DNA of 64,000 nt, from positions 1,855 to 65,854 of the forward strand of contig JAQVBZ010000004.1 in the NCBI GenBank assembly GCA_028690055.1. Reading direction: 5' to 3'. Of the stretch, positions 3,098-47,141 are shown piece after piece. The notes under the pieces were generated by a model. It saw only the letters and a list, made by a program, of their open reading frames with translations, had not been told where the DNA came from and searched no databases. Each line of letters starts with the position of its first letter. Positions within the stretch are counted from its first letter, which is position 1. This DNA is from Minisyncoccota bacterium (GTDB taxonomy: Bacteria; Patescibacteriota; Minisyncoccia; JAHIHE01; JAGLIN01). Both the position numbers and the translations under genes were made by a program.

Positions 3098-3151
3098 TTG
3101 TCATTCTGAGCCAGACAAAACCGGACTACGATCCGGTACTGGAATGACAAA
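3098..3151. mobile_element. MITE-like element, family A (TTGTCATTC…GGAATGACAAA), short copy
   Basis: Terminal inverted repeats ttgtcattctgag / ggaatgacaaa flanking the internal hairpin ccgga-ctacgat-ccgg. Confidence 0.6.
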
Positions 3152-3193
3152 CAGGGAAAGTTTATCTACGTAAATATCGAAATTATCATTTTT

Positions 3194-3323
3194 TTGTCAT
3201 TCCGGCCTTAGGAGGATACCTACCTTACAGTTAAGCTATACCATATAGGTAAGATGGCAGTATTATAGGGATTCTTCTACTCCGCTACCGCCCTCGACAA
3301 GGGCAAGGGCTCAGAATGACAAA
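3194..3323. mobile_element. MITE-like element, family A
   Basis: ttgtcattccgg … ctcagaatgacaaa termini around ~110 bp of unrelated core. Confidence 0.6.
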
Positions 3324-3466
3324 ATATTATTTTTATCGCAAAATAGAAGCTTATTGCTTCATTCAGGTAATTTTGATATTCGCGTTTTATCTATTTTTAT
3401 CTATATTGACAAAAGCGAAATTTGTGATACTATATGCTAAGAAGGAAAAATTGGAGATGAAAGATA

Positions 3467-3739
3467 ATGGAAAAAGGAAAACATCCAGGATTGATAAAAA
3501 TCCGTAATGATTTTGAGGCGGCAGAAAAGATAGAACCAGAAGAAATAGCTGGAGCGCTTATCGAGGAATTTGGTTTGCCATTTGTAGGTAGTAGGCAGAT
3601 AACCACTGCACGGGCAAAAGAATTGTGCTCTCAGGACGAAGAGGGGTTTATAGTCCTCTATAAAGACATTCCTGGGGCGCGGGAGGTTATTGATACGCTA
3701 AAAAGAAGAAAAAGTGATATCGTATGGGGGGGCTTATGA
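3467..3739 (+). CDS. hypothetical small protein (90 aa)
   Basis: ORF preceded by GGAGA RBS-like sequence; stop overlaps a strong hairpin plus T-run (3726-3778). Confidence 0.4.
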   Translation: MEKGKHPGLIKIRNDFEAAEKIEPEEIAGALIEEFGLPFVGSRQITTARAKELCSQDEEGFIVLYKDIPGAREVIDTLKRRKSDIVWGGL

Positions 3740-3778
3740 AATCATAGTATATGATTTCATACCCCTTCTTTTTTATTG
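3726..3778 (+). terminator. Rho-independent terminator
   Basis: 10-bp stem ATGAAATCAT/ATGATTTCAT, loop AGTAT, then CCCCTTCTTTTTTATT. Confidence 0.65.
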
Positions 3779-3921
3779 TCTCCCTACAGAAACGTCGATT
3801 CATCGCGTACAATTTTTCTAATAAAATCGTCTATCGCGCATTCTGAGACGCGATAAATCGACGTTTCTACAAAACAATCTTTGGCGACCCCGTCGCATCT
3901 AATTCTCGCTTCCCCTCCGTA

Positions 3922-4094
3922 TGTCATTCCCGTGGAGGCGGGAATCCAGAGTAGAAACTGCAAAATAGCCGTAGAATAAAGAAAATATACAGGAGAATTC
4001 AAACGGCTAAGGTGTTTTGGTAAGGTATTTCGGTATTGAAACATTAAATTCCTTATGGAACTTATCCTCGCGGAGCAAGGCCGGGAATGACACA
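3922..4094. mobile_element. MITE-like element, family A
   Basis: tgtcattcccg … ccgggaatgacaca termini. Confidence 0.55.
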
Positions 4095-4187
4095 AATAGA
4101 ACGGGAGGGGGTTTCGATCGCTACAATTTTAACAAATTATTATTTTTGTGATATTATGTAAGAAAAGAAACATAGGAGTGATTGACA

Positions 4188-4487
4188 ATGGAAAACACAC
4201 CCGAGACACCCCATCTTGTAGATGCTTTTCATATAGATTCTCCGAGACTGTTGGTGGAATTGACCAACGCAATACCCGGTGGTGAAGAGCTGACCATGGA
4301 AAAAGCAGACGAGTTGCTTCATCAAAAAAAATATAGAATAGATGAAGTCAATGGCAAAATTATAAGGGTCCATTTTTGCGGAATGATAGACCCAAGTGGT
4401 TACAATGCGGAACACGGCGAAGGCGCCGTAGAAAGAATCGTTGATGCGATACAAAACCCCATATGGGAGAGATTGCCCTACTGTTAG
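4188..4487 (+). CDS. hypothetical protein (~99 aa)
   Basis: ORF with AGGAGTG RBS 7 nt upstream of ATG at 4188; no recognisable domain. Confidence 0.4.
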   Translation: MENTPETPHLVDAFHIDSPRLLVELTNAIPGGEELTMEKADELLHQKKYRIDEVNGKIIRVHFCGMIDPSGYNAEHGEGAVERIVDAIQNPIWERLPYC

Positions 4488-5298
4488 GTGCTAAGATCTC
4501 CTATTTTTTTATCGCGAAATAATTTACCTACAAAACAAAATCGCGAAATCTCGTGAGGGGTTGAAGACTGATAAGCCGTTTTAAATATTGAATAATTTAG
4601 TAATCTATAAGGCCCAAAGCGGACAAATGGAGTTTAGCGGAGATTTTCAAAATTAAACCATCTGGGCTACGCTAGACCAGATTGCCGATGTTTTTGGATG
4701 CGATAAATCTGTCATTTCATAACATTTTAAAAATGTTTTTAAAGAAGGCGAATTGCAGAGAGAATCAGTTGTTGCAAAAAACGCAACAACTGCCAGCGAC
4801 GGTAAAATTTATCAGGTTGAATATTATAATCTGGACACCATTATTCCGTCGGGTACAGGGTCAACTCTATGCAGTCTACAAAATTTCGCCAATAGGCCAC
4901 GAAGACATATGGGACAAATATTTTCGCGCCTTAAAACCCGAATATATTATGTCGTTTCCGAATTGTAGGGGCACAATATCTTGTGCCCTTTTTATCACTA
5001 AAACCGCGAAAGATACGATGCTGACAATAAGGTTATCTTTATAAACAACCTTCGCAAACTCTTACGTATTTCCCGGATACCTCATGCGAGTACGCCTTTT
5101 TCTGGATGAGAAATTACTGGGGGGCTTTAATAAAAATTTTGGTTTTCTCGCTTTACATTCCGCCGACAGGGTTTATACTATAAATGTAGGCTTTAAACGC
5201 GAAAATACCCGGGAACGGGGAATGCACCTAAGAAAACGATGATTTTACAGGGAGGCCGGGGAGAGGCGCTTTTTTAATGGGATTTATAAAAACTTTTT

Positions 5299-6753
5299 AT
5301 GTTTGAACAATCTTTTAAGAATATTGATGATATCTTACGCAAGGATGCTGGGGCGTCGAGCGAGTTGGACTATGTTGAGCAGACTTCCTGGATTCTTTTT
5401 TTGAAATATCTAGACGATCTGGAGAAGGAAAAAGAACTGGCGGCGAAACTTGCCGACCAAGAATATAAATATATTATCTCGCCTAAATACCGTTGGGAGG
5501 CGTGGGCTTGTCCCAAAGGCAAGGATGGAAAACTGGATCACAATACTGCACTTTCGGGCGATGACCTTAAGGACTTTGTGGATCGGGAGCTTTTTCCGTA
5601 TCTGAAGAAATTCTGTGAGGATGCAGTAAGCCCAGATACGATTGAATACAAGATCGGGGAAATTTTTAGTGAAATCAAAAATAAGATCCAGAGTGGATAT
5701 AATCTTCGCGAAGTTTTGAATATTATCGATGCAATGCGTTTTCGCTCTCAGCAGGAAAAGCACGAGCTTTCGCATCTCTATGAAGTCAAGATTAAGAATA
5801 TGGGCAATGCGGGACGAAACGGAGGCGAATACTATACTCCGCGTCCGCTTATCAAGACCATCGTCAAAGTGGTTGATCCCAAAATCGGGGAAACCGTCTA
5901 TGACGGCGCCGTGGGTTCAGCCGGGTTTTTGGTGGAAGCTTTTGAGCATATGAAGGAAAGTAAAAAACTTTCCACAAGCGATATGGACTTTTTGCAGATG
6001 AAAACCTTTTTTGGTAAAGAGAAAAAATCGCTGGCATACATTATCGGGATTATGAATATGATTTTGCACGGCATTGAAGCGCCTAGCATCCGCCATATGA
6101 ATACTCTTTCGGAAAATATTGCCGACTTTCAAGAAAAAGACCGCTTTGATATTGTGCTGGCGAATCCGCCATTTGGCAGCCAAGAGCGCGCGGAAGTCCA
6201 GCAAAATTTCCCCATCAAAACCGGAGAAACCGCTTTTCTTTTCCTTCAACATTTTATAAAAATACTTCGAGCCGGCGGCAGGGCGGGTGTGGTCATCAAA
6301 AACACTTTTCTTTCCAACACCGATAACGCTTCCGTTTCGCTTCGCAAGACGCTCCTCACTGAATGTAATCTCCATACCGTCCTCGACCTTCCCGGTGGCA
6401 CCTTCACCGGCGCGGGTGTGAAAACCGTGATTCTATTTTTTGAAAAAGGCAAACCCACGAAAAAAGTCTGGTTCTATCAACTCAACCTCGACCGCAATCT
6501 CGGCAAGACCAATCCGCTTAGTGAAAAGGATCTGGCTGATTTTCTGAAACTGCAAAAGACCAAAGCTGACAGTGAAAATTCTTGGACGATTGATGTCGCA
6601 GATATTGATGCGAAAACTTTTGACCTCTCGGTTAAGAATCCGAATAAAAATGGGGAAGTGGTTTTGAGAGAGCCGGGGGAGATTTTGGGGGAGATGGAAG
6701 CTTTAAATAAGGAAAGTAATGTGATTTTGTCTAAAATTAGGAAGATATGCTAG
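5299..6753 (+). CDS. hsdM: Type I restriction-modification system, DNA methyltransferase subunit M
   Basis: 484 aa; HsdM N-terminal domain; AdoMet motif I (DGAVGSAGFL) and catalytic motif IV (NPPFG) of N6-adenine methyltransferases. Confidence 0.92.
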   Translation: MFEQSFKNIDDILRKDAGASSELDYVEQTSWILFLKYLDDLEKEKELAAKLADQEYKYIISPKYRWEAWACPKGKDGKLDHNTALSGDDLKDFVDRELFPYLKKFCEDAVSPDTIEYKIGEIFSEIKNKIQSGYNLREVLNIIDAMRFRSQQEKHELSHLYEVKIKNMGNAGRNGGEYYTPRPLIKTIVKVVDPKIGETVYDGAVGSAGFLVEAFEHMKESKKLSTSDMDFLQMKTFFGKEKKSLAYIIGIMNMILHGIEAPSIRHMNTLSENIADFQEKDRFDIVLANPPFGSQERAEVQQNFPIKTGETAFLFLQHFIKILRAGGRAGVVIKNTFLSNTDNASVSLRKTLLTECNLHTVLDLPGGTFTGAGVKTVILFFEKGKPTKKVWFYQLNLDRNLGKTNPLSEKDLADFLKLQKTKADSENSWTIDVADIDAKTFDLSVKNPNKNGEVVLREPGEILGEMEALNKESNVILSKIRKIC

Positions 6754-6805
6754 TTTTGCTACAAGAGAACTATCGATTATTGGGCTTATACTAGGCATTC
6801 TCTTA

Positions 6806-6835
6806 TCATTTGACATTACTAGTATAGTATAATAT
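6806..6835. promoter_or_regulatory. Perfect 10-bp inverted repeat flanking TATAAT-like box upstream of the AAA ATPase gene (candidate operator/promoter)
   Basis: ttactagtat-agtataat-atactagtaa; a second TATAAT at 6857-6862. Confidence 0.35.
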
Positions 6836-6850
6836 ACTAGTAACATACAG

Positions 6851-8296
6851 TTGAAGTATAATAGAATATATATGAATCAGGAACTGGTACAATATTTGCA
6901 ACAACAAATCAGAACGAGTGATGAGAGGTTGAAGCGATTTACGCACGACATAAAAGGAAAGCCATATCCTAGCCGTTTTATGTTTGTAAAATTAAAGCAA
7001 TATGTCAACGATTTTGTTAAAAAGAAATCGACCAACAGGATGGTGATTATGCCGGGCTTTAGAGGCGTGGGAAAGACTACTCTAATGGCTCAAGTGTGCG
7101 CGGAATATAAGAATATGGGATATAATACCCTTTTTCTCTCCGTTGAAGACGCTAATAATCTTTTTGATGTCGGCATCGCAGAGCTAATGTCGGCTTATGA
7201 AAGCATTTTAGGAGAAAATCTAGAAACCGTAAAAAAACCAATCTTGATTTTCCTGGACGAGATTCAGAGCGACCCCAAATGGGCGGTCACACTGAAGTCA
7301 TTGTTTGAGAAAACTTCAAATATATTTTTTTGCTGTACCGGATCTTCAGCCGTTATCTTGCAGACTACGACCAACCTAGCCCGAAGAGCTGTCTTTGAGA
7401 GAATGCCGCCAATGTGTTTTACGGAATATCAGATGGTAAAAAATGAGATATATCCTATGAACGGACTGAAAGAAAAAATCAGGCAGGCGGTATATTTTTC
7501 AAAAGACGCGGATGAAGTTTATGTCAATCTAAAAAAACTTCAGCCTTCCGTCAATCAATATTGGTCAAAGGCGAACAGGTTTGATATTCGGGAATATCTC
7601 TCTTTTGGAACTTTGCCTTTTGCCTTAATGATGCCTAGCGAGTCTGCCGTGTATGACTCCATCTCTCTCTTGCTTGATAAAATCATCAGATATGACTTGC
7701 CGACTTTAGGCAGCTTTGATACGGATACTCTTGGAAATGTAAAAAGAATGCTTTTTTCAATCGCGGAAAACGATACAACCAGTTTAAACGTCCTAGAGGA
7801 AAGATTTAAAATCAATCGTCTAACAATTTCCAATATCTTTGATGCCTTGGTAAGAGCGGAACTGCTTATTGATGTGCCGGCTTATGGATCAAATATGGGG
7901 GTTGCCAAGAAACCGCATAAATATCTTTTTATGACACCGGCAATCAGAATGTCTTTTTTCTATTTTACCGGCAGAGAGGACACTTATTTAACCAGGCAGG
8001 GGAAACTACTGGAAGATTCGGTTGGTTCGCATCTTTATAGAGAATTTATTTTGAGAAATCAAGGCGCGATTCGTTACGACAGCGCAGAGGGTGGAGCTGA
8101 TTTTATTTTACAAATACAAAATAACAAACAAATTATTATTGAAGTGGGGATGGGTAGCAAAGATAAGAAACAGATTATAAACAGCAGTAAAAAAATAAGT
8201 TCGGATTATAATCTGATTTTTTCTAATAGCGAATTAAAAGTCGATCCGGATCTGAAAATCGTGTTTGTGCCGTTGGATTATTATTTTTTGATGTAG
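6851..8296 (+). CDS. AAA+ superfamily ATPase, COG1373-like (AAA_14 + DUF4143-like C-terminal domain)
   Basis: Walker A GFRGVGKTT, Walker B ILIFLDEIQ; C-terminal D…E…K (GGADFILQ…IIIEVGMGSK) reminiscent of a PD-(D/E)xK fold. TTG at 6851 or ATG at 6872. Confidence 0.8.
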   Translation: MKYNRIYMNQELVQYLQQQIRTSDERLKRFTHDIKGKPYPSRFMFVKLKQYVNDFVKKKSTNRMVIMPGFRGVGKTTLMAQVCAEYKNMGYNTLFLSVEDANNLFDVGIAELMSAYESILGENLETVKKPILIFLDEIQSDPKWAVTLKSLFEKTSNIFFCCTGSSAVILQTTTNLARRAVFERMPPMCFTEYQMVKNEIYPMNGLKEKIRQAVYFSKDADEVYVNLKKLQPSVNQYWSKANRFDIREYLSFGTLPFALMMPSESAVYDSISLLLDKIIRYDLPTLGSFDTDTLGNVKRMLFSIAENDTTSLNVLEERFKINRLTISNIFDALVRAELLIDVPAYGSNMGVAKKPHKYLFMTPAIRMSFFYFTGREDTYLTRQGKLLEDSVGSHLYREFILRNQGAIRYDSAEGGADFILQIQNNKQIIIEVGMGSKDKKQIINSSKKISSDYNLIFSNSELKVDPDLKIVFVPLDYYFLM

Positions 8297-8444
8297 GTTA
8301 TCTGAAAAAGGGAAGTGATTTATTAAGGACACATAGAGAGTTCACCGTAAAGCCCTTAAACTATAAAATCATTAATTTGCTTATATTGCACCAGACGCTC
8401 GATGAGCCATATACAAAGATTTAATTGGTTCCATAAATTTTATT

Positions 8445-9056
8445 ATGAGAGAGAAAATTTTGCAAAAATATAGTCGTCTCATACAAGATATAGACGACTC
8501 TTCTGAAAGACCAGGCACGTCAACAATAGTGCGTGTTGTGACTGAGGCTAAAAATTTAATAAGAAAATCCTGTGGTGAGAGTAGTGATCACTATCTAGCA
8601 ATTAAAAGATTAAGTGAAAATTTCCACAGAAACGATTCAAGCCAATATAAAGGGATAATCGAGGCGGCCTATAATGATTATAAGGATGGGTTCACAAACA
8701 TCGACTCGTTTATTAGGGCGGAAATTTTTGAGGACTTTCTTTCAATGTCAGAATATCTTCTTGAGCAAGGATATAACGCTCCGGCCGCTTCTTTGGCGGG
8801 TGGAGTATTAGAAGATTCTTTGCGAAAACTATGTGATAAACATGGCATTTTGTATCCTGAAAAAACAAAGATAAATAGCCTTAATATAGACTTGGCGAAA
8901 GCGGGTGTTTACACTGCTTTAGTGTCAAAAGAAATCATTGCGAAGGCTGATATCAGAAATAGTGCCGACCATGGTAAATTTGAAGAATTAAAAAAAGAAG
9001 ACGTTGAAGAAATGGTTAGATGGGTTCGCAGATTTATTATTGAATATTTAGGATAA
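8445..9056 (+). CDS. HEPN-superfamily protein, DUF4145-like (203 aa)
   Basis: C-terminal …LAKAGVYTALVSKEIIAKADIRNSADHGKFEE… contains the Rx4H motif (R-NSAD-H) in a DUF4145-like context. Stop overlaps the start of the next ORF (TAATGG). Confidence 0.6.
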   Translation: MREKILQKYSRLIQDIDDSSERPGTSTIVRVVTEAKNLIRKSCGESSDHYLAIKRLSENFHRNDSSQYKGIIEAAYNDYKDGFTNIDSFIRAEIFEDFLSMSEYLLEQGYNAPAASLAGGVLEDSLRKLCDKHGILYPEKTKINSLNIDLAKAGVYTALVSKEIIAKADIRNSADHGKFEELKKEDVEEMVRWVRRFIIEYLG

Positions 9057-9643
9057 TGGATGAAAAAGATCAAATAATTTTAGAAGATTCAATTCATGCT
9101 ATTTTGTCCAATATTCCAGGACTGAATATCGCTTGGGGGCTTAGCACGGCTTTATACGGATCGGCTTTGAAACTGAGGCAAAAGAAAGTCCTCGAATGGG
9201 TAGAAATGGTAAGAGATAATCCGAATATTTTTGTTACAGACTTATTGCAAAATGAGTTTTTTCAAGATGGCTTTGCCTATTCCTTGGAAAAGTATGTGGT
9301 CGAAAGAAATGAAGAAAAGAGAAAATATTTTAGGAATATTTTTCTAGGATTTTCATCTAGTAATGATATGCAAAACTTCCCGCTTGAAAAGTTTGTTCAT
9401 ACTCTTTCACAGTTGGGAAAAGTGGACGTTACTGTTTTGGGGGATGTAAATATTATGCAACAGGATAGCGAATATCAGATTTATGGGAATGAAAATCATA
9501 AATTAATTTATATATATAATTTAATAAATCTAGGTATTTTGAGCACAAGTCCAACAACTAGATACGGTCCTATTCACGCACCCTTTGTTCGGGTTTCGGC
9601 GTTTGGAGGAGAATTTATAAAATATATAAAAGATGAAAAATAG
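9056..9643 (+). CDS. hypothetical protein (195 aa), translationally coupled to the HEPN gene and hsdS
   Basis: 1-nt overlap with upstream stop and 11-nt overlap with hsdS start; no recognisable motif. Confidence 0.55.
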   Translation: MDEKDQIILEDSIHAILSNIPGLNIAWGLSTALYGSALKLRQKKVLEWVEMVRDNPNIFVTDLLQNEFFQDGFAYSLEKYVVERNEEKRKYFRNIFLGFSSSNDMQNFPLEKFVHTLSQLGKVDVTVLGDVNIMQQDSEYQIYGNENHKLIYIYNLINLGILSTSPTTRYGPIHAPFVRVSAFGGEFIKYIKDEK

Positions 9644-10811
9644 TTGGCAAACAAAAAAACTTGAAGATGTCTGTAATATTGTTGGCGGAGGAACCCCTTC
9701 TAAAATCAACGAGAGCTTTTATACTGGAAAAATCCTCTGGGCGACTGTAAGAGATATGAAGTCTGACATAATTGAAGACACAGAATACAAAATAACTGAA
9801 GAGGCGATAAAAAATAGTTCAACTAATATTATTCCGAAAAATAATGTTATTATTGCCACACGAGTTGGATTGGGAAAGGTTTGTTTTTCTAAATATGATA
9901 TGGCGGTTAATCAAGACTTAAAAGGTATTATCCCTAGAGATACAAATAGATTGTCTGTGTGTTATTTGTATTGGTGGCTAAAAAGCACCTCAAATATTAT
10001 TGAAGAAAACGGAACTGGTGCAACAGTGCAAGGTGTAAAACTATCGTTTATAAAAAATCTGAGAATCCCCCTTCCTTCTCTCCTTGAGCAAAAACGGATT
10101 GTGAAGATTTTGGATGAGGTTTTTGAGGAGGTGGGGAAGGCGAAAGAAAATGCGGAGAAGAATTTGCGGAATTCTCGCGAGCTTTTTGAGTCGTATTTGC
10201 AGAGTGTTTTTGAGAATAAGGGAGAGGGGTGGGGGGAGAGGAGACTAGGAGACGTTTGCGGAACTGGTGCGGGTGGTACTCCTCTAAAATCTCATAAAGA
10301 ATATTATGAAAATGGCGAAGTCCCCTGGCTTAGAAGTGGTGAGGTAAATAAAAAAGAAGTGATGCGATCAAAAGTTTTTATCTCAGAAGCAGGATTGAAT
10401 AATTCTTCCGCAAGAATGTTTCCTATAAATACAGTATTGATTGCGATGTACGGAGCAACGGCTGGGCAGGTGGGAATTTTGAAATTTGCATCATCCACGA
10501 ATCAAGCAGTTTGCGGAATTTTACCCAACAAAAAATTTTCAGCAGATTTTCTTTATTATGTCTTTCTGTCTAAGAAAAAAGAATTAGTTTCACAAGCAGT
10601 TGGTGGGGCACAGCCGAACATTTCACAGATTAAGATAAAAGATACTTTTATTCCAGTCTTAGAATTATCTGAGCAAAAAGCTATCGTCAAAAAACTTGAT
10701 GCGCTTTCTGAGGAGACGAAGAAGTTGGAGGAGATTTATAAAAAGGAAATTGCCGATTTGGAGGAGTTGAAAAAGTCCGTTTTGCAGAAGGCATTTCGAG
10801 GGGAATTATAA
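9633..10811 (+). CDS. hsdS: Type I restriction-modification system, specificity subunit S
   Basis: 392 aa; two target-recognition domains separated and followed by the conserved coiled-coil repeats (LPSLLEQKRIVKILDEVFEEV… / LSEQKAIVKKLDALSEE…). Confidence 0.9.
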   Translation: MKNSWQTKKLEDVCNIVGGGTPSKINESFYTGKILWATVRDMKSDIIEDTEYKITEEAIKNSSTNIIPKNNVIIATRVGLGKVCFSKYDMAVNQDLKGIIPRDTNRLSVCYLYWWLKSTSNIIEENGTGATVQGVKLSFIKNLRIPLPSLLEQKRIVKILDEVFEEVGKAKENAEKNLRNSRELFESYLQSVFENKGEGWGERRLGDVCGTGAGGTPLKSHKEYYENGEVPWLRSGEVNKKEVMRSKVFISEAGLNNSSARMFPINTVLIAMYGATAGQVGILKFASSTNQAVCGILPNKKFSADFLYYVFLSKKKELVSQAVGGAQPNISQIKIKDTFIPVLELSEQKAIVKKLDALSEETKKLEEIYKKEIADLEELKKSVLQKAFRGEL

Positions 10812-10818
10812 AGTTTAG

Positions 10819-10932
10819 TTGTCATTCCGAGCTTGTCGAGGAATCGCTACACTACGATAAGGCTGCATAATACGGGTTGGATGGTGGTGAAGGGATCCTT
10901 CGACTCCGCTACGCTCCGCTCAGGATGACAAA
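10819..10932. mobile_element. MITE-like element, family A (copy 1 of a tandem pair)
   Basis: ttgtcattccgagc … ctcaggatgacaaa; ~90% identical to the copy at 10967-11080. Confidence 0.65.
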
Positions 10933-10966
10933 TCAAGGGGCTTTTAGAGAGAAAGGTAATTTTTGT

Positions 10967-11080
10967 TTGTCATTCCGAGCTTGTCGAGGAATCTCTTCAT
11001 TACGATAGGGCTGCATAATACGGATTGGGTGGTAGTGAAGGGATCCTTCGACTCCGTTACGCTCTGCTCAGGATGACAAA
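10967..11080. mobile_element. MITE-like element, family A (copy 2 of a tandem pair)
   Basis: Same termini and core as 10819-10932. Confidence 0.65.
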
Positions 11081-11100
11081 AAAAGGAGATGGTGCGGCAT

Positions 11101-11236
11101 GGAGTAGTAGACTTTAGTCTGCGCGGCTGTCCTACGGGGGAGATAATAACGCATACGGCGCATTTATCGGCTTGGGATAGCAGCGCGGGTTAAAACCCGC
11201 TACTCCAAAACGCGCGCGGGTTGAAACCTGTTACTC
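11101..11236. mobile_element. MITE-like element, family B (GGAGTAGYAG…CTGCTACTCC) with partial tandem repeat of its right end
   Basis: ggagtagtagactttagtctgcgc … ggatagcagcgcgggttaaaacccgctactcc, then a second …gggttgaaacctgttactcc. Confidence 0.6.
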
Positions 11237-11326
11237 CAAAACAAAATGTAGCGCGGGATGAATCACATTGCTCCTAGGTATGTGGATGTTATTTGCTTTT
11301 ATCTATGTTTTTGGTAAGATGAAGTT

Positions 11327-12346
11327 ATGAAGTTTACAAGAACAAAAAAACTCTTATTTACGAACAATAAAGGGGGTGTTGGGAAGACAACGCTTGCTTT
11401 TAATTGTGCAATGTCATTTGCAAAGCAAGGCTATAAAACGGTCTTGGTTGACCTGGATCCACAATGCAATCTTTCCCGCCTAGCGCTTGGAGAAGAAGAA
11501 TTTTCAAAAACTTTATTTTCAACTACTCACAAGGATATATCCGATGTGCTTCGAGGTGTGGTTGAGGGTGGGGGTGATGTTGATTTCGCGGTTCCTTTTA
11601 TACCAATTCTAAGAAGTAATTCGAATTTATTTCTTATGAAAGGGAGCGTCGAGCTTTCTCTTTACGAAAATTTGCTTGTGACCGCTTATGGACAAGCTGC
11701 TTCCGGGCAACAAATAGGATACTTTCAGACGAGTGCGATTGACAGATTTCTACGCGAAAGAGGACTGAGTGATGAAGTAGATATTTTTATAATTGATACG
11801 TCGCCTAGTTTGTCCCTGCTTAATCAGATAATATTTCTTGGTTCTGATTATTTTGTGGTGCCAATGATGCCTGATGCTTTTAGTGTGCAGGGAATAGAAA
11901 ACTTGGGGACAATATTTGAGAAATGGAAGACTAATTGGAAAAATACAGGCAAAGCCCTTTCGGGAGATACGGAAAATAAATTTATTTTGTCTGGAGAGGG
12001 ACTGTTTATTGGGTATATAGTGAATTCTTATAACGTATATGGCGGACAGCCCATCAAGGATCATCGGCATTGGATTGATGAAATTCCTGAAAAAGTAAAG
12101 AAATTTCTTTCTGAGAAACATTGTCGAAACGGTTTGGTTGAGAAAAGCTGGAAAGAGCCTATTTCTATTATCAAAGATTATGGAAGAATCCCTGCTATGT
12201 GCCAGGAGCTGGGTGTTGCTATATTTGATTTAGATCCGTCGCTTGTTGAAGATAATCAAATAGGTACAAAGGAAAATATTGAAAAATCGAAGGAGGAATT
12301 CGATAGCTTGTCGAATAGAATACTTAATGTATTGTCTGCTTATTAA
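11327..12346 (+). CDS. ParA/MinD-family P-loop ATPase (orphan, 339 aa)
   Basis: Deviant Walker A NNKGGVGKTT, Walker A' and B (VLVDLDPQ, IFIIDTSP); no parB nearby; extended C-terminus. Confidence 0.8.
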   Translation: MKFTRTKKLLFTNNKGGVGKTTLAFNCAMSFAKQGYKTVLVDLDPQCNLSRLALGEEEFSKTLFSTTHKDISDVLRGVVEGGGDVDFAVPFIPILRSNSNLFLMKGSVELSLYENLLVTAYGQAASGQQIGYFQTSAIDRFLRERGLSDEVDIFIIDTSPSLSLLNQIIFLGSDYFVVPMMPDAFSVQGIENLGTIFEKWKTNWKNTGKALSGDTENKFILSGEGLFIGYIVNSYNVYGGQPIKDHRHWIDEIPEKVKKFLSEKHCRNGLVEKSWKEPISIIKDYGRIPAMCQELGVAIFDLDPSLVEDNQIGTKENIEKSKEEFDSLSNRILNVLSAY

Positions 12347-12368
12347 AGATTTTATCGCAGGTTTTGTT

Positions 12369-12396
12369 AAAACTCGTCTTTCGGGCGAGTTTTTAA
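12369..12396 (+). terminator. Rho-independent terminator after the ParA-like gene
   Basis: AAAACTCG-tctttcggg-CGAGTTTT + TTTTAAT. Confidence 0.65.
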
Positions 12397-12404
12397 TACC
12401 TATA

Positions 12405-12534
12405 CCGAATTAATTTAATCTGTGGCATAATGATTTCACATTTAGTCCCCCTCACCCCGACCCTCTCCCGATGGGAGAGGGAGAAATCACAAATGCTTTA
12501 CGATTGGGTTGTAGGACAGATTCAGTTAATTCGG
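12405..12534. mobile_element. MITE-like element, family C (TIR CCGAATTAATTTAATCTG; internal CCCTCTCCCGATGGGAGAGGG hairpin)
   Basis: ccgaattaatttaatctgtg … cagattcagttaattcgg; ~85% identical to 17651-17784 and to 38880-39012 (inverted). Confidence 0.65.
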
Positions 12535-12640
12535 TATTATTCTAATGTCTGGAAATAACGCAATCCTTATTCTAGAAAAAGCCCTCAGACTGGAATAACG
12601 AGGACTATGCTTTTTTAGATTTAATTAAAATCATAAAGTA

Positions 12641-14962: not shown

Positions 14963-15008
14963 AAGATGAAACAATATCTCAATCGAACTATCCATATTGT
15001 CATAATCT

Positions 15009-15082
15009 GGAGTAGCGGGCTATAACTCGCGCGGTTGTCTCAAGGGCATCGGATAGCAGCGCAGACTGAAGTCTGCTACTCC
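15009..15082. mobile_element. MITE-like element, family B
   Basis: ggagtagcgggctataactcgcgcggttgtc … ggatagcagcgcagactgaagtctgctactcc. Confidence 0.6.
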
Positions 15083-15321
15083 GAAATGCGATGCGGAATA
15101 AAGATGTGCGCTCTATGTGTCAAAAAGGAAAAAGATTTTGCAGAATTGAAAAATAAATCATAATAAAACAAAATTAAAACTATGTCAGACACAATCAAAA
15201 AACATTCGCCTTTAAAAAACACTCCACTACGACAGGCGGGAGAATCTCTCAATGATAAACTTCAGGAAATCCTTTACGTAAAGATAATGTCTGTTATCAT
15301 CGCTATTTTTTTGTATTCTTT

Positions 15322-29933: not shown

Positions 29934-29966
29934 CTAATTAATAAATCGTCAATACTAACAACCCAT

Positions 29967-36403: not shown

Positions 36404-36410
36404 GATTATC

Positions 36411-36544
36411 TGTCATTCCAAAATGAGCGAAGCGATTGAGGAATCTGGGAAAGATGCGATGCAACTGGAATATTTATTTTAAAGATAATAATATTGCAGT
36501 ATCGTGCATTTCCCAGATTTCTCACATTCGTTCGAAATGACAAC
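36411..36544. mobile_element. MITE-like element, family A
   Basis: tgtcattccaaaatg…gaatctgggaaa … tttcccagattt…cgaaatgacaac. Confidence 0.55.
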
Positions 36545-37256
36545 TAAAAATAATTCTATGACTACAGAACAGTTTGAAATTTTGATTACTTTTTTCGGTG
36601 CTTTTTTCGGTGCTTTTTTTGCATTTATTTTCATGCTAAAAATTGAGCAGGGGCATCGAAATGAAGAGATCAAAAATGCACTTTTCGAAATTAGCGTCAG
36701 GAGTAGTGTTGATAATGAAATAGCTATTGATAAAAATATCTCGATCATAGGTTCTTTGCAAAAAGGAATTTCTGAAAACTCTTCTTTTTATTATCCCTTT
36801 GGTGGATTTTGTTTATTTCAAAAAAACAGTTCTGCGGTTTTAAATAAGCTGGGAGGTATTGACCTAATGTTTAAAATTATTGATTTTGATTATAAAACTC
36901 AAAAGATTAATCAGGAGATGAATGATATAGGCAAGCCTTTTTTGGGTAAAAATTTGATTAAAGAAAAAGATTCAAATAGTTTTTTTAACGGTGAAACTTA
37001 TTTTGATTCAGATAGCTACGCAAATGATTTATTAGAAAAAAAACATGCGTTGGAAATGCTAGAGGAAGATAATATTAAGATTCTAGTAAGGACTAATACT
37101 TTGTTAAAAAAGAAAAATAAAGGGGTGTTTTTCAGATTGTTTCAAAATGATAAGGTTACTGATAACGATATAGAAAATGAACAGATAGAAATAGAGCAAT
37201 TTAAAGAAGTTTATAAAAAGAGAAGAGAACCAAAAATAAATACTACAAATCTATGA
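36504..37256 (+). CDS. hypothetical membrane protein, AT-rich and low complexity
   Basis: N-terminal TM (ILITFFGAFFGAFFAFIFML); K/N/D-rich remainder. Confidence 0.4.
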   Translation: MHFPDFSHSFEMTTKNNSMTTEQFEILITFFGAFFGAFFAFIFMLKIEQGHRNEEIKNALFEISVRSSVDNEIAIDKNISIIGSLQKGISENSSFYYPFGGFCLFQKNSSAVLNKLGGIDLMFKIIDFDYKTQKINQEMNDIGKPFLGKNLIKEKDSNSFFNGETYFDSDSYANDLLEKKHALEMLEEDNIKILVRTNTLLKKKNKGVFFRLFQNDKVTDNDIENEQIEIEQFKEVYKKRREPKINTTNL

Positions 37257-37636
37257 CCCACGAAGAAATTTGCGAAAGAATATTTGAGCACGCTTGTCGT
37301 TGTCTCAAGATGAAGGGCTTTACATTCAAGCCCAAGGTTGTCCGTGCGGGGGACGGGTATGTCAAAGTATATAAGCTGGGATATACTGATCTCGCTTCCA
37401 AATTGGTGGTGATTGATATCTATACGCAGAAGCTCAAGAAGCCGAAAAAATATAGTGGCATCCTCGCGGTGATGGCTCATGAATTAGCTCATCATCAGAA
37501 GAAGCCTTATCGCCAGCTTGACCTGAGGCGGAGGAAATGGATAAACCGCATCCATTATCCGGAATTTTATAAACAATGCAACAAGAATATCGAGAAGTTT
37601 AAGAAAGATAAGGTTTTGAAACAGTTCTATGAATAA
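37253..37636 (+). CDS. small HExxH putative zinc metallopeptidase
   Basis: …ILAVMAHELAHHQKKPY…; 4-nt overlap with upstream ORF. Confidence 0.5.
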   Translation: MTHEEICERIFEHACRCLKMKGFTFKPKVVRAGDGYVKVYKLGYTDLASKLVVIDIYTQKLKKPKKYSGILAVMAHELAHHQKKPYRQLDLRRRKWINRIHYPEFYKQCNKNIEKFKKDKVLKQFYE

Positions 37637-37647
37637 AATATATCGTG

Positions 37648-37752
37648 GAGTAGCTGGTTTTAACCCGCGCCGTTGTCCTATGCTGTTTGAACCTCCGCAG
37701 TCGCACGTTCTGTTTGCATAGGATAGCAGCGCAGGTTAAAACCTGCTACTCC
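37648..37752. mobile_element. MITE-like element, family B
   Basis: ggagtagctggttttaacccgcgccgttgtcc … ggatagcagcgcaggttaaaacctgctactcc. Confidence 0.6.
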
Positions 37753-37774
37753 GCACGTATAATCTTTTAAATCT

Positions 37775-38878
37775 ATGAATAAAAATAATCCTAAAAAAGT
37801 CTTCGTCGGTATCAGTGGCGGGGTTGATTCTGCCGCTTCGGCGACACTGCTTCAGCAGCAGGGTTTTGAGGTGACAGGAATATATATGCGGATTTGGAAA
37901 GAAAAAGGTTCGCCGCTGGAAGCGAAAGGGGAAGAGGAAAATGCCAGGCGTGTTGCCAAAGAATTGGAGATAGGATTCGTAACCGTTGACTTACGCAAAG
38001 AATTCAAGAAAGAAATTGTGGATTATTTTCTTTCGCAGTACGAGAGCGGTCGCACTCCCAATCCTTGTGTGCGGTGCAATCGTGAAATCAAGTTCGGGCT
38101 TCTCTTCAAGAAATCGATGGAAATGGGTGCGGACTTTTTCGCGACTGGACATTACGTCCGGATCAGGCAAAACATTTCGCAAGGGAAAAATGGGAGGAAA
38201 ATTAAAAAATATAAACTTTCCAAAGCGAAAGACATACAAAAAGACCAGTCATATTTTCTCTATAATCTGAATCAAAAAATATTGAGCAAGACCATTTTCC
38301 CCTTGGGAAGCCTTACCAAACCGGAGGTCAGAGAAATCGCTAAAGAGAATAGCCTATTCGTGCACGACAAGTCCGATAGTCAGGAAGTATGTTTTATCAC
38401 CGACAAATATTACGGCGAATTTTTGAAGAGGATGAAAGTGAAGATGAAAGCGGGGGATATCGTAGACGAAGAGGGTAATGTTTTGGGCGAACATCGCGGG
38501 CTGCCGCTTTACACGATCGGGCAGAGGCGAGACATCCGTATCGGCGGCACCGGACCGTATTTCGTGGTCGGACTCGATTACAGAAATAACCATCTGGTCG
38601 TGAGTCGCGACGGCAACAGTAAAAAATTATTTGTTAAAAAGTTCACTCTCCGTGATGTGAATTGGGTAGGCAAGCAGCCAGAGACTTATCCTCTTAAAGT
38701 AAAAATCAAAACCCGTTATCGTATGGAAGCGGTCGACTCGCAAGTCTCTAAAGAAAAAAATAAGATCATCGTCACGTTATCAAAAAAAAGCCGTGCTGTT
38801 ATGCCTGGCCAGTCGGCAGTATTCTATTTGCGCAGTGATGTTCTGGGTGGCGGGGTTATCGATAGGATTTTGGAATGA
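37775..38878 (+). CDS. mnmA: tRNA-specific 2-thiouridylase
   Basis: PP-loop SGGVDS, catalytic NPCVRCN, 367 aa. Confidence 0.9.
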   Translation: MNKNNPKKVFVGISGGVDSAASATLLQQQGFEVTGIYMRIWKEKGSPLEAKGEEENARRVAKELEIGFVTVDLRKEFKKEIVDYFLSQYESGRTPNPCVRCNREIKFGLLFKKSMEMGADFFATGHYVRIRQNISQGKNGRKIKKYKLSKAKDIQKDQSYFLYNLNQKILSKTIFPLGSLTKPEVREIAKENSLFVHDKSDSQEVCFITDKYYGEFLKRMKVKMKAGDIVDEEGNVLGEHRGLPLYTIGQRRDIRIGGTGPYFVVGLDYRNNHLVVSRDGNSKKLFVKKFTLRDVNWVGKQPETYPLKVKIKTRYRMEAVDSQVSKEKNKIIVTLSKKSRAVMPGQSAVFYLRSDVLGGGVIDRILE

Positions 38879-38879
38879 T

Positions 38880-39012
38880 ACTAGATCGACTAAATCCGTT
38901 CCACAATCCAGCCATATAGTATTCGGAATTTCTCCCTCTCCCATCGGGAGAGGGTCGGGGTGAGGGGGAATAAAAGTACAATCATTATGTCACAGATTAA
39001 TTTAATTTTGTA
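38880..39012. mobile_element. MITE-like element, family C (inverted orientation)
   Basis: Reverse complement aligns with 12405-12534 and 17651-17784 including the CCCTCTCCCGATGGGAGAGGG hairpin. Confidence 0.6.
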
Positions 39013-39043
39013 TAAGTTTATCTCTAATTTTTAACTAAAAAAA

Positions 39044-39391
39044 ATGGAAAACTCACAGAAAACAACGAAAATTTTAGTCGGAATAGTTATTCTTATTGTC
39101 CTTGTATTTATGGGAATAAAAATGTCGGACTTTCAAAAAAATGCGGAAGAGAAAACGTCGGCACCGGCATCCGAAGAAAACAATGCTTTGTTGGAAGAGA
39201 ACGAAGAGGCGACTTCATCCGAGAATAACGACATTCAGTCGAGTGAGCCTGAAATCAATGAATCTACACCTGAGGAAAGAGCGAACCGGACCGTTTCGCC
39301 GTCAGATGCCGCCTCTTATTCTGAAAACGATTTGCCGGTAGATCCTAATTCTACGATGGATCCGGGAACAGATGCAATTGTTAATGACTAG
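39044..39391 (+). CDS. small membrane-anchored acidic protein (115 aa)
   Basis: N-terminal TM (ILVGIVILIVLVFMGI), E/S/N-rich tail. Confidence 0.45.
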   Translation: MENSQKTTKILVGIVILIVLVFMGIKMSDFQKNAEEKTSAPASEENNALLEENEEATSSENNDIQSSEPEINESTPEERANRTVSPSDAASYSENDLPVDPNSTMDPGTDAIVND

Positions 39392-39439: not shown

Positions 39440-39583
39440 TTGTCATCCCGAAAGATGTACCCATCTGAGGGATCTGGGAAATATATCTGTTTGGGAGATA
39501 TTGATTTTATAAATATAAATTTAAAACCGCATCGTATTTTTCCCAGATTCCTCAATCGGAGTACCTCATTTCGGAATGACAAA
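39440..39583. mobile_element. MITE-like element, family A
   Basis: ttgtcatcccgaaag…gagggatctgggaaatata … tttcccagattcc…tttcggaatgacaaa. Confidence 0.6.
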
Positions 39584-44254: not shown

Positions 44255-44387
44255 TCCATATATCAAAAAACAGCATAGTGATATGTTGTTTTTTGGGCTT
44301 GTTATTCTGCTATCGGTCTAATCGCTTTTCCAAATTCACAAATGATTTGCGAGCTTAGAAAAATGAAATAGGAAGAAGATGAAAGAA

Positions 44388-44693
44388 TTATTCTCTCATC
44401 TTCTCTAACGTCTTTAATGCAATTATCCATAATACCACGGATAAAAACAAGAATATGCCAGAGGCTGTCTGTCCTGTGAATAGAACGTTACTCGTGATAG
44501 TTACCTCTTGATGGGGGTCAATATTTGCTCTTATTGCATGTACGAATATCGCGCTGCAACTGAAAAATATTACTTCCGCTAATTTTTTTAAATTGTAGTT
44601 GTAATCGTTATTGTCGTTGTTATTGTTATCGTCCAATATTGTAACCTCGTTTTTCGTACTGTATAAATATACACTAAATATAAGAAATATCAA
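44388..44693 (-). CDS. hypothetical small membrane protein
   Basis: ORF with two hydrophobic segments and an Asn/Asp-rich linker; weak. Confidence 0.3.
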   Translation of the reverse strand: MIFLIFSVYLYSTKNEVTILDDNNNNDNNDYNYNLKKLAEVIFFSCSAIFVHAIRANIDPHQEVTITSNVLFTGQTASGIFLFLSVVLWIIALKTLEKMRE

Positions 44694-44909
44694 TGGCAGA
44701 AGGTAATGTATATATGTTTGTCTTGATAAAGATATCTGAAATCTGGTTTATTAAGTATTTGATGCTGAGTCTTGAAATACGGATATCTTTTGATTCGTAA
44801 ATATTGTGATTGCCATGTCGGAAAGTGCATGAGATGTTGAGCCCTTACGGCCCGCAATGGTAGAAAGAAACATTCTCTTCATATATACGGTTGCCCGATT
44901 TCTCTTATT

Positions 44910-45635
44910 ATGCTAAATTATAAAAAGTTAATAAACTCTCATTCTGATATGAAAAAAGGAAATACTTACATTCTGTCTCTCGGAGGATCGTTGATCGTTC
45001 CGGATGAGGTCGATTACAAGTTTTTGAAGGGCTTTGTGGAATTGATTACGAAGAGAACCGAGCAGGGCGATAAATTTGTAATCGTCTGTGGCGGGGGAGG
45101 AGTCAACCGCAAATACAATCAGGCGGCGCAGAAGGTGCGTCCGATGTCCAATACTGAATTGGACTGGCTGGGCATTCATGCCACGCGTTATAATGCGCAG
45201 CTGGTGCGGCTACTATTCGGTAAGATCGCTTACGAAGAAGTGGTCGTTAATCCTTACGAGAAGGCCGTGACTCGAAAGCCGGTTATAATTGGCGCTGGAT
45301 ACGAGCCGGGGTGGTCGAGTGACTACGACGCGGTCTATCTGGCGGACACATACAAAATCAAGAATATCGCCAACCTCTCCAATATCGATTATGCCTATGA
45401 CAAAGATCCTCGCAAATTCAAGGATGCTCAGAAAATCAAAGATATTAGCTGGAAAGATTTTCGCAAAATCGTCGGCGACAAATGGGAACCGCGTATGAGC
45501 AAGCCTTTCGACCCCATCGCCAGTCGTGAAGCGGAGAAATTGGGATTGCAAGTCGTGATTATGAACGGCAAGAAGCTGAAGAATTTGGAAAAATATTTGA
45601 ATGGAGAGAAATTTCAGGGGACGGTGATAAAATAA
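44910..45635 (+). CDS. pyrH: Amino-acid-kinase-family protein, probable UMP kinase (archaeal-type PyrH)
   Basis: ILSLGGSLI… and VIVCGGGG glycine-rich loops of the AAK fold; ~230 aa. Confidence 0.6.
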   Translation: MLNYKKLINSHSDMKKGNTYILSLGGSLIVPDEVDYKFLKGFVELITKRTEQGDKFVIVCGGGGVNRKYNQAAQKVRPMSNTELDWLGIHATRYNAQLVRLLFGKIAYEEVVVNPYEKAVTRKPVIIGAGYEPGWSSDYDAVYLADTYKIKNIANLSNIDYAYDKDPRKFKDAQKIKDISWKDFRKIVGDKWEPRMSKPFDPIASREAEKLGLQVVIMNGKKLKNLEKYLNGEKFQGTVIK

Positions 45636-45687
45636 TGTTTAAATAGAATAAGACGGCCTCGTGTCGTCTTTTTTTTGGTATGATAAA

Positions 45688-45861
45688 TGGAGTAGCGGGA
45701 TTTATCCCGCGCGGTTGTCCCAAGCCACTAAACCCTTCGCAATCGCACTTCCTATTCACATAAGATAGCAGCGCAGGTTAAAACCTGCTACTCCATCGTG
45801 TTTTTAGCAATTGTACGTTCTATTCGCGTAGGACAACTGCGCAGACTAAAGTCTGCTACTC
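45688..45861. mobile_element. MITE-like element, family B with duplicated right end
   Basis: ggagtagcgggatttatcccgcgcggttgtccc … gatagcagcgcaggttaaaacctgctactcc … gcgcagactaaagtctgctactcc. Confidence 0.6.
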
Positions 45862-46222
45862 CAAATTCTTATCGCTTGACAGCCCTTGGTATTTTTTATT
45901 TTTATGCTATCATAAAACAAAAAGCGAGGATTTACTATGGATTGTGCATCGGAGATACTCTCATTTAAAATTCTATTAGGTTACATAGGGTGGAAAGGAT
46001 GTTTGCTAATATTATGGGTTTGTTTTATTTTCGAGGTACTGGTGGTATATTTGCCGCGGTATATAGATAGAAAAAAGAAACCCAATGATCTTAAGTAAAT
46101 TTTTATTGTTTACGAATCATAGGATTACATCACAAAATAAGATTAAGGTTAAAAGATTGAACTGGCTTGCTTATTACTTATCAGCTTTTTTAATCTTTAT
46201 TTTTTTGTGCTAAGATAAGACT

Positions 46223-46876
46223 ATGGAAGAAATCAAACTGGACTCTCGGAGTCCGCAAACAATCGAATTTTCTCTAGAAAAATCACGACAGGCCTTGGTG
46301 GGTGGAGGTGTGATTGCTTTTCCTACGGATACGATTTATGGTTTGGGGGCGAATGCCTTTGACGAAGAGGCGATTTTGAAGGTTTACAGGATAAAAGAGC
46401 GGAATATTAATAAGCCTCTCTCAATTCTGGTCCGGGATATTTCGATGGCCAAAAAGGTGGCTTGCATAGACTCTCGGGCGGAGAAGATTCTGGAGAAGCT
46501 TTGGCCGGATTCTGTCACTGTTATTTTGCGTAAAAAAGATATTTTGCCGTATGCGCTTACCGGGGGCGAAGAAAATGTAGCTATGCGGATTTCCGGCAAT
46601 CTTTTTGTCAAAAGTTTATTCTCTCAAATCGATTTTCCCATCACAGCCACCAGCGCCAATATTGCAGGAGAACCCGATCTGCTCACGGCCGACGCAATCA
46701 AAGAAAAATTTTCCTGCAGAGAGAATTCTCCCGACCTTTTTATAAATAGCGGTGATCTCGATAATCATCTGCCTTCGACTATCATAGACCTTACGGACGT
46801 CAATAATCCTCGCTTGGTTCGGATGGGGATGGTGAGCAAGGACAAGCTGAGCGCCTTTTTTAAGAAATTCGAGTAA
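46223..46876 (+). CDS. tsaC: L-threonylcarbamoyladenylate synthase (TsaC/YrdC family)
   Basis: …GGVIAFPTDTIYGLGANA… and …TATSANIAGEP…. Confidence 0.88.
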   Translation: MEEIKLDSRSPQTIEFSLEKSRQALVGGGVIAFPTDTIYGLGANAFDEEAILKVYRIKERNINKPLSILVRDISMAKKVACIDSRAEKILEKLWPDSVTVILRKKDILPYALTGGEENVAMRISGNLFVKSLFSQIDFPITATSANIAGEPDLLTADAIKEKFSCRENSPDLFINSGDLDNHLPSTIIDLTDVNNPRLVRMGMVSKDKLSAFFKKFE

Positions 46877-46977
46877 TAGGGCTGCGTTTAATGATTAAAT
46901 ACAATTTGTTTGCCATTCCTGTACAAGTTTAATAATTCACTAATTGAATTGTAATTGAAACAAATACACTCGTAATT

Positions 46978-47141
46978 TGTCACCCCGAAAGGCGTAATCG
47001 CATGAGGGGTCCGGGAAATATATAAACGATTGTGAATGTTATTTATAAAGATAACTTTATTATCAAGTATGGTACCTTTCCCGGATTCCGGGGTAGCAGA
47101 GGGTACAAAATATTGTGCCCCTACAATTCGGAACGACAAAA
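46978..47141. mobile_element. Composite MITE-like element (family A termini + GGGTACAAAATATTGTGCCC palindrome); second copy of the ~280-bp block
   Basis: ~85% identity to 27940-28240 extending beyond the TIRs on both sides. Confidence 0.65.

Follow-up and report, generated by a model that had tools for sequence, protein, structure and literature searches.

The 64 kb stretch of contig JAQVBZ010000004.1 analysed here (64 000 nucleotides, the whole of which is called the window) contains, between its genes, a set of short repeats with inverted ends, referred to as family A. A preliminary description left two readings of these repeats, a non-autonomous mobile element whose enzyme is encoded elsewhere or a recognition site for a recombinase or nuclease, and the question raised by the locus is what the repeats are. 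Family A probably consists of Patescibacterial hairpin repeats of the Neisseria NTS/dRS3 class, recognized by a nuclease of the Ssn family. It adds a new phylum to the recently described system of NTS repeats and Ssn-related motifs (SRM) and is not a new kind of element. Mobilization of family A by Ssn is unproven.

Anatomy and number of the repeats

The inverted ends that had been described are real, but the repeating unit is a hairpin module of 25-60 nt and not a terminus of 12 nt. Between its head, (T)TGTCAT[TC]C[CT], and its tail, [GA]G[GA]ATC[CT], each module has a stem-loop that varies; at the base of the hairpin ATTCC pairs with GGAAT. A paired element is made of two modules facing each other across a variable core, so that modules of both orientations are contained in every paired element. 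Single modules are present on either strand (29424+, 50079+, 18678- and 59300-) and, since these solo hairpins occur, the hairpin rather than the pair is taken as the basic unit. The 18 clean modules, distributed over both strands, have the head GTCAT[TC]C[CT] in common, and all but three or four of them have a recognizable tail of the GGAAT/GGGAT-C type. They were grouped by us into about nine module types, which differ in all but their head, hairpin base and tail.

Altogether 14 paired elements and five solo hairpins were found in the window. This corresponds to about 33 hairpins in the 64 kb; about one in three of the longer spacers has one or more of them. With at most one mismatch, the 12-mer TTTGTCATTCCG gave 13 matches in the window compared with 0.56 expected from shuffled sequences, and the head-plus-tail pattern GTCAYYCY-N8-38-RGRATCY gave 14 compared with 0.24. 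The exact 12-mer is present at just four termini, and the terminus consensus is degenerate. The 12 copies listed in the preliminary description were confirmed both in position and in the inversion of their termini. They are joined by a decayed element at 4950-5110, a solo hairpin at 18678-18703 on the minus strand and a degenerate solo hairpin at 24915-24973. A supposed fragment at 63470 proved to be a complete element of about 195 bp (63475-63667) with a degenerate right head.

All copies of family A lie in non-coding DNA, in a window of which about 80% is spanned by greedily called open reading frames (ORFs) of at least 90 aa. The intergenic location claimed for all copies was thus upheld: overlaps between copies and ORFs are few, and the ORFs concerned were judged to be spurious or over-extended. 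Two of them, 3784-4095 (minus strand) and 4682-5044, have TTG starts, the latter having no Pfam match; the ORF at 36504 has an over-long GTG start; and 63591-63998 (minus strand) is antisense to a gene that could be aligned with locus L179 over the same stretch.

Folded as single-stranded DNA, most modules gave z scores of -3 to -5.7 and whole elements gave z scores of -5 to -6. Covariation was assessed for the module type of 29424 and 31433 (T6), using matches to the pattern GTCATYCCGGAATTT-N6-14-AAATATCCGG in a scan of metagenomes; T6 modules were found in at least 120 contigs with GC contents of 27-73%. Among the matches listed there are 133 unique modules, in which 72 distinct loop-proximal sequences lengthen the stem by 2.33 Watson-Crick pairs compared with 0.50 after shuffling. 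The free Y/R position is C-G or T-A in 78 of 83 cases. At positions left free by the pattern, the base preceding GTC is Y and the unconstrained 3' flank reads G/A-A-Y-C-C-M-G. Structure rather than sequence is under selection in the modules.

The spacers that hold family A also contain the hairpin repeat families D1, D2/D3 and D6, one of which is nested in family-A modules. As these families are interleaved with or nested in one another, the spacers are to be regarded as mosaics.

Relationship to the Neisseria NTS repeats

A match in the literature was found through the motif GTCATTCC, which led to the study of Chenal et al. (2025; PMC11893778), in which Ssn nucleases and their hairpin targets were first described, using RefSeq reference and representative genomes. 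The Neisseria target NTS, CGTCATTCCCGCGMAVGCGGGAATCYRG, which includes dRS3, is a substrate of SsnA, a single-domain GIY-YIG nuclease of 94 aa that is inactive on RNA; SsnA binds and cuts NTS solely as single-stranded DNA of the forward strand. According to mutagenesis, the 3 nt that precede the palindrome matter most for cleavage, and the C that directly follows it for binding (PMC11893778). Cleavage of NTS reduces the integration of NTS-carrying transforming DNA in Neisseria, and ssn genes across phyla are flanked by SRM (PMC11893778).

The left module of the element at 3922 (3922-3949) carries the NTS base at 25 of the 28 consensus positions, a score for which one match was found and none expected. 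The GTC head is kept in all modules of the window, and the hairpin base and the following C are kept in most. Like SRM, which are oriented inverted repeats of 20-50 nt with the head H-GTC-W-Y, a conserved C after the palindrome and an ATC-Y-R-G flank, the modules of family A are headed hairpins, and in most of them C or ATC[CT] comes after the palindrome. The features held in common with NTS/SRM are therefore the Y-GTC-A head, the TTCC...GGAA base of the palindrome, the ATC-Y-R-G tail, the intergenic location and the high density; furthermore, in other genomes, Parcubacteria among them, like modules flank small GIY-YIG genes that encode a single domain. With a hairpin head, base and tail like those of NTS, and with these neighbouring genes elsewhere, the recognition site for a recombinase or nuclease is the better supported of the two readings proposed beforehand. 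The differences are that most hairpins of the window are longer (about 30-60 nt), contain nested inner hairpins and lie outside the published pattern, that the host is a bacterium of the Patescibacteria/Parcubacteria type, from a phylum unmentioned in the main text of PMC11893778, and that the window has no ssn gene. In the papers searched, no description of Ssn or of SRM repeats in Patescibacteria was found. NTS-like repeats at high density in the genome of an uncultured, ultra-small bacterium of this phylum, in variants overlooked by the published pattern, are the new element of the present analysis.

The paired arrangement also has a counterpart in Neisseria. Neisseria intergenic mosaic elements (NIMEs) are intergenic repeat segments flanked by dRS3 inverted repeats; they likewise have variable cores of 50-150 bp between inverted ATTCC(C)...(G)GGAAT hairpins, with other repeat families interleaved. 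Family A differs in its phylum and in its unrelated cores, and here whole units recur across genomes and the spacers of relatives are short.

Association with small GIY-YIG genes in other contigs

Small GIY-YIG genes adjoining the module came up in loci L128, L160, L168 and L183 when the collected DNA was searched in six frames with a profile; their products are single-domain PF01541 proteins of 95-99 aa. Genes are called Ssn-like here when they encode single-domain PF01541 products of 94-101 aa, and nine outside loci with such genes were inspected. In seven of the nine (L128, L160, L168, L209, L211, L214 and L218-220) two GTCAT modules, one on each side of the gene, point towards each other. 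In L168 a literal published SRM stands directly upstream of the gene in addition to T6 modules. Since the gene is enclosed by convergent modules in most of these loci, the paired elements of the window look like gene-less versions of a unit composed of module, ssn gene and inverted module.

The locus L218-220 derives from Parcubacteria ADurb.Bin192 (GCA_002070095.1), GCA_022705785.1 and an ENA contig. Its gene has a stop codon that abuts the downstream module, which is followed by a gene-less pair. Hairpin, GIY-YIG gene, hairpin and gene-less pair form a block of 696 bp (in the region of locus positions 1700-3800) that is single in one assembly and a tandem double in two. A run of half-hairpin heads (GTCATCCTGA, every 20 nt or so) comes after the block.

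The protein search gave 2007 GIY-YIG homologues, several of which are assigned by name to Parcubacteria, Pacebacteria, Moranbacteria or Patescibacteria. The sole PDB relative is 1ZG2, a distant UPF0213 structure (E = 0.003).

Copy number and differences between relatives

Of the genomes in the collection, L009 is the closest (83% amino-acid identity in ProS). Its gene order matches that of the window and its spacers are far shorter: 58 bp compared with 433 bp between RRF (ribosome-recycling factor) and RseP, where the window has the 27989 element; 68 bp compared with 576 bp between RseP and ProS (the 29424 solo module); and 112 bp compared with 567 bp between ProS and the second MreB (the 31433 element). 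In L179, whose DNA in the ribosomal-protein/secY region shows about 83% identity, the secY-adk spacer lacks the 63475-63667 element. As relatives have short spacers at these four matching sites, the elements have been gained or lost between relatives; the spacers of L179 and L009 are too diverged for exact insertion junctions or ends to be read. The head motif GTCATYCY occurs 4.4 times per 10 kb in the window and 0-2 times per 10 kb in 76 of 80 related Patescibacteria loci.

Whole units of 128-142 bp like 31433-31577 were found in other low-GC contigs, several of them from the same sample series, and the window copy is 71-85% identical to them. One sibling contig contains at least four copies with 90-95% mutual identity. 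In high-GC contigs the T6 module forms convergent pairs of 103-114 bp. The idea of a non-autonomous element with its enzyme elsewhere survives only in a modified form, in which the layout is that of the ssn unit without its gene, units are multi-copy in siblings and the matching spacers of relatives are short.

Contigs L001-L008, aligned with window positions 23605-39390, start or end in or beside family-A elements (23605, 28091-28119, 31569 and 39371-39390). Because contigs break at the elements, the repeats limit the short-read assembly of this genome; in practical terms, such repeats break short-read assemblies of genomes of this kind.

Proposed function and points against it

In the most likely mechanism, DNA would become single-stranded during uptake, replication or repair, allowing the hairpins to form. 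A nuclease of the Ssn family, with its gene at another place in the genome, would then bind the hairpin base and the following C and would nick a few bases upstream of GTC, about where conservation of the elements stops. We infer that the organism possesses a cognate Ssn and that this enzyme would cut these particular modules; Ssn itself, or recombination at the nicks, may spread them.

Pili and competence genes have been reported to be prevalent in Patescibacteria and proposed to aid DNA uptake, and GIY-YIG genes are among those predicted to have been transferred horizontally from Patescibacteria (PMC12455944). These reports fit a role in the handling of incoming DNA but do not prove it. Since pili and competence are prevalent in these bacteria and NTS cleavage limits integration in Neisseria, a nuclease-hairpin system could matter for how foreign DNA is dealt with.

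A stronger claim would be that the arrangement hairpin-ssn-inverted hairpin is a true mobile element with the GIY-YIG nuclease of about 95 aa as its sole enzyme, the pairs in the window being MITE-like non-autonomous derivatives (MITE, miniature inverted-repeat transposable element). This we regard as possible but doubtful. If true, it would define a class of hairpin-ended mobile DNA separate from the DDE, HUH, serine and tyrosine systems. The same 35-nt module is found in contigs of 27-73% GC, and on this ground such a unit could cross phyla; it would have expanded strongly in some genome-reduced Patescibacteria. The layout that the gene-less pairs share with most gene-carrying units, together with the short spacers of relatives at the matching sites, offers a concrete route to testing the mobility of Ssn units.

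The following points weigh against the assignment to the Ssn-related repeats. The published SRM pattern, HGTCWYN(0-2)YYVSBRHN(0-5)WNVSBRGN(0-2)RNCYNB, has no literal match in the window. Our implementation of it recovers the canonical NTS, and because it also overlooks, in seven low-GC loci, the modules next to Ssn-like genes, the failure is taken as a limit of the pattern, which appears to be too narrow for longer hairpins like those described here. Modules of the 10819 type fold weakly by themselves (z of about 0 to +1.5), the whole element giving z = -2.1. No GIY-YIG or ssn gene was detected in the 64 kb window by regular-expression search, by six-frame jackhmmer or by Pfam on small ORFs, and the ssn gene of the organism was not located among the homologues common to JGI, ENA and Logan (P0099, P0077 and P0074), all of them from samples other than that of the window. 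The GIY-YIG proteins of the outside loci are without an NCBIfam model. In two of the nine loci the arrangement is less regular: in L183 a clear module is present upstream of the gene only, with no clean convergent pair, and in L221 (Pacebacteria) the modules near the gene on both sides are on the same strand. The comparison of copy positions between strains, which had been suggested as a check on mobility, gave no signal, eight contigs of the same population (99.7-100% identical) showing no polymorphism for gain or loss of an element. Several window copies are decayed, which bears on present-day activity, and no mechanism is known for the copying of hairpins to new places by Ssn.

Alternative explanations

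It is unlikely that family A is a classical MITE, i.e. an insertion-sequence deletion derivative moved in trans by a transposase of the DDE or IS200/IS605 type. Such an origin would agree with elements that are small and intergenic and occur in many copies with inverted termini, as it would with the short spacers at the matching sites of relatives, the near-identical multi-copy units in a sibling genome and the breaks of assemblies at copies. Correia-type bacterial MITEs in particular are similar in their length of 50-200 bp, terminal inverted repeats, intergenic location, copy number and whole-element fold-back. However, target-site duplications were looked for as had been proposed and none was seen: direct repeats flank neither the window copies nor the aligned 128-bp units from other contigs. 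No transposase was identified by Pfam in 30 ORFs of the window, and neither an IS200/IS605 nor an IS630/Tc1 transposase, the two candidates named beforehand, is associated with the elements in the window or beside like modules elsewhere. The strict transposase-derived reading is for these two reasons unsupported. Moreover, the gene between like termini in seven outside loci encodes a GIY-YIG nuclease of about 95 aa and not a transposase, and the termini are self-contained and also occur solo, so that the pair is not the basic unit. Family A further differs from Correia-type elements in that neither a target-site duplication nor a transposase-bearing parent insertion sequence was found. IS200/IS605 elements and their palindromic derivatives come closer in having no target-site duplication, sub-terminal hairpins that are recognized as single-stranded DNA and non-autonomous derivatives. 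No TnpA/TnpB was found here, and the ends of IS200/IS605 elements are not mutual inverted copies as those of family A are.

The hairpins might instead be passive hot spots, serving as attachment or target sites for phage or insertion-sequence recombinases and spreading by duplication and recombination only. dRS3 has been reported as a phage recombinase target (PMC11893778), the elements at 10819 and 10967 are a tandem duplication, the 696-bp ssn block is single or double in three assemblies of the same Parcubacteria locus, and an inserted gene (ORF 29562-29933) adjoins a solo module. Against this, no integrase, IS110-type gene or prophage lies beside any copy in the window, and dispersed near-identical whole units at unrelated loci are left unexplained. 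As a full account this is improbable; it is compatible with recognition by Ssn and not exclusive of it.

Also considered was a structured RNA, in which transcribed hairpins would stabilize, terminate or regulate the flanking mRNAs. The predicted folds are strong, the stems show compensatory changes and the elements sit between co-oriented genes, for which reason they are probably transcribed. A conserved structured RNA with covariation had been put forward as grounds for abandoning a mobile-DNA origin. The stems do covary, which is equally expected of single-stranded DNA hairpins. No Rfam family was matched at the gathering score; at E values up to 1 there was only a chance match of a plant miRNA precursor, MIR841, to 63467-63672. 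In addition, modules are present on both strands and in both orientations in every element, the hairpins have no following T-tract, a separate canonical terminator lies downstream of the 31433 element, among the matches listed the same module stands beside nuclease genes in hosts of 27-73% GC, and RNA is not acted on by SsnA (PMC11893778). We consider this reading very improbable. In a scan for terminators and promoters, the modules were likewise rejected as intrinsic terminators.

Least probable of all, with very little weight in our estimate, are repetitive extragenic palindromes and the mosaics built from them (REP/BIME) kept by a REP-associated tyrosine transposase (RAYT): these are likewise inverted hairpin pairs in intergenic mosaics, with an enzyme gene that is flanked by its own repeats and a product thought to recognize a single-stranded hairpin, much as proposed for Ssn, and a separate hairpin of the window, GTAGGGGCACAATATCTTGTGCCC (D6), has the GTAG head typical of REPs and is nested in two family-A modules, but the head of family A is GTCA and not GTAG, a Pfam scan of 30 ORFs of the window gave no Y1 transposase, no RAYT gene came to notice at any locus inspected, and the gene between modules elsewhere is of the GIY-YIG and not the Y1 (HUH) type.

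Integron attC sites were dropped as a candidate; the flanking genes are housekeeping genes and the termini are unlike the attC consensus.

Individual copies

A short paired element of 54 bp (3098-3151) has two inverted heads and one inner hairpin and folds as single-stranded DNA with -10.9 kcal/mol (z = -4.4). It is followed by a paired element of 130 bp (3194-3323) with a right module of the GTCATTCTGAGC...GAAGAATCC type and by one of 173 bp (3922-4094), in which the near-canonical NTS module has a hairpin z of -3.15 and the right module occupies 4048-4091 on the minus strand. The decayed element at 4950-5110 is of the 27989 type in reversed orientation and lies inside the ORF without a Pfam match; the 18-mer TGCCCCTACAATTCGGAA is common to it and to positions 28131 and 47116.

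The paired elements at 10819-10932 and 10967-11080 (family D8) form the tandem pair that had been described, with 130 nt at 88% identity spaced by 148 bp. The solo module at 18678-18703, GTCATCCTGAACTCATTTCGGGATCC, was found with the head-plus-tail pattern and is similar to the GTCATCCTGAAC...CAGGATC modules on either side of the GIY-YIG gene of Parcubacteria ADurb.Bin192. Further paired elements are those at 20499-20598 (100 bp) and 23462-23619 (158 bp); the latter has an additional internal left-facing head at 23523, and the short-read contigs L001 and L002 begin inside it. The weak, degenerate solo module at 24915-24973 (plus strand; head TGTTATTGC, tail GGCAATCC) came from a relaxed scan.

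The paired element at 27989-28155 (167 bp, GAGGGATCTGGGAAA subfamily) contains repeats D5, D6, D9 and D10, and its right module contains a nested GTAGGGGCACAA...TTGTGCCC hairpin. The paired element at 46978-47141 (164 bp) is a copy of it, with D5 and D9 at 85-88%. Since 27934-28227 and 46922-47212 are about 85-88% identical over some 290 bp, the similarity of the two copies exceeds the termini. Both appear from their flanks to be seated within an outer palindrome of about 300 bp (27934-28227 and 46911-47220, respectively), and outer TGCCATYCC heads surround the 46978 copy at 46911 (plus strand) and 47220 (minus strand).

The solo T6 module of the CCGGAATTT...AAATATCCGG type at 29424-29465 (plus strand) forms a single-stranded DNA hairpin of -14.7 kcal/mol (z = -5.67), and two T6 modules make up the paired element at 31433-31577 (145 bp). 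The internal motif GAGGGATCTGGGAAATATA...TTTCCCAGATTCC, which had been noted in several copies, is found in the 27989 and 39440 elements and, in variant form, in those at 36411 and 46978. The 36411-36544 element (134 bp) is a variant of the GGAATCTGGGAAA subfamily with repeat D12 (fold z = -6.25), and the 39440-39583 element (144 bp) belongs to the GAGGGATCTGGGAAATATA subfamily and contains repeats D10 and D12 (fold z = -5.93). A weak solo module, GTCATTCTAAGATCGAAATGATGAATCTT, at 50079-50112 (plus strand) is the least convincing copy. A solo T6-like module lies in the ribosomal-protein gene cluster at 59300-59345 on the minus strand (reverse complement GTCATCCCGAAATTCTGCTCTGCAAAATATCCGGGACCC), and the complete element at 63475-63667, of the 3922 subfamily, is a long hairpin and has modules at 63476 (plus strand) and 63665 (minus strand).

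The terminus AATGACA scores as an outward -35-like box (ATGACA) at 31570-31598 (plus strand) and 39446-39418 (minus strand), in each case as a weak match to the consensus. On the strength of these scores the elements could supply halves of promoters.

Neighbouring features of the window

The window is a segment of a bacterial chromosome with genes mostly on the plus strand, including those for a type I restriction-modification system, two MreB proteins, penicillin-binding protein 2, RRF, an EF-Tu-type GTPase and SecY. It contains no tRNA and no Rfam family at the gathering score. A defence-type cluster extends from 5299 to 15975 and comprises HsdM (5299), an AAA_14/DUF4143 ATPase (6851), a weakly matched HEPN protein (8445), HsdS (9633), a ParA-like ATPase (11327), HsdR (12641) and a protein with a NERD nuclease domain (15322). 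Family A is represented within the cluster (10819-11080) and along its left margin (3098-5110).

Other hairpin families share the spacers. The second family, CCCCCTCACCCCGACCCTCTCCC-N4-GGGAGAGGG, has seven or eight copies, at 12441-12486, 17470-17515, 17689-17734, 18350-18395, 18469-18514, 22815-22860 and 25009-25054 and at approximately 38940-38957 on the minus strand. The copy at 25028-25050 scores as terminator-like, and a stretch of 103 nt that overlaps the minus-strand copy (38889-38990) is 89% identical to L091 and L176 from the same sample series. Six copies of a third family, GGATAGCAGCGCAGGTTAAAACCTGCTACTCC, are found at 11163-11206, 15039-15082, 18776-18819, 37709-37752, 45751-45794 and 45819-45862, three of which reach about 107 nt. 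The REP-like hairpin D6, with its GTAGG head, occurs both alone and nested in family-A modules (4965-4990, 17542-17581, 18703-18742, 25133-25172, 28101-28140 and 47086-47125); within the window itself no RAYT gene turned up.

Upstream of secY (61930-62100) lies an unrelated insertion of some 150 bp, which is palindromic, contains AACCGTAAAATTTCGA...TCGAAATTTTACGGTT and is missing from L179. The ORFs 29562-29933 (minus strand; no Pfam match) and 22785-23447 (plus strand) have no counterpart in the syntenic L009, and each adjoins a family-A hairpin or element. The MreB paralogues, at 20660-21667 and 31782-32834, are 10 kb apart, and both are present in L009 with 93-94% amino-acid identity.

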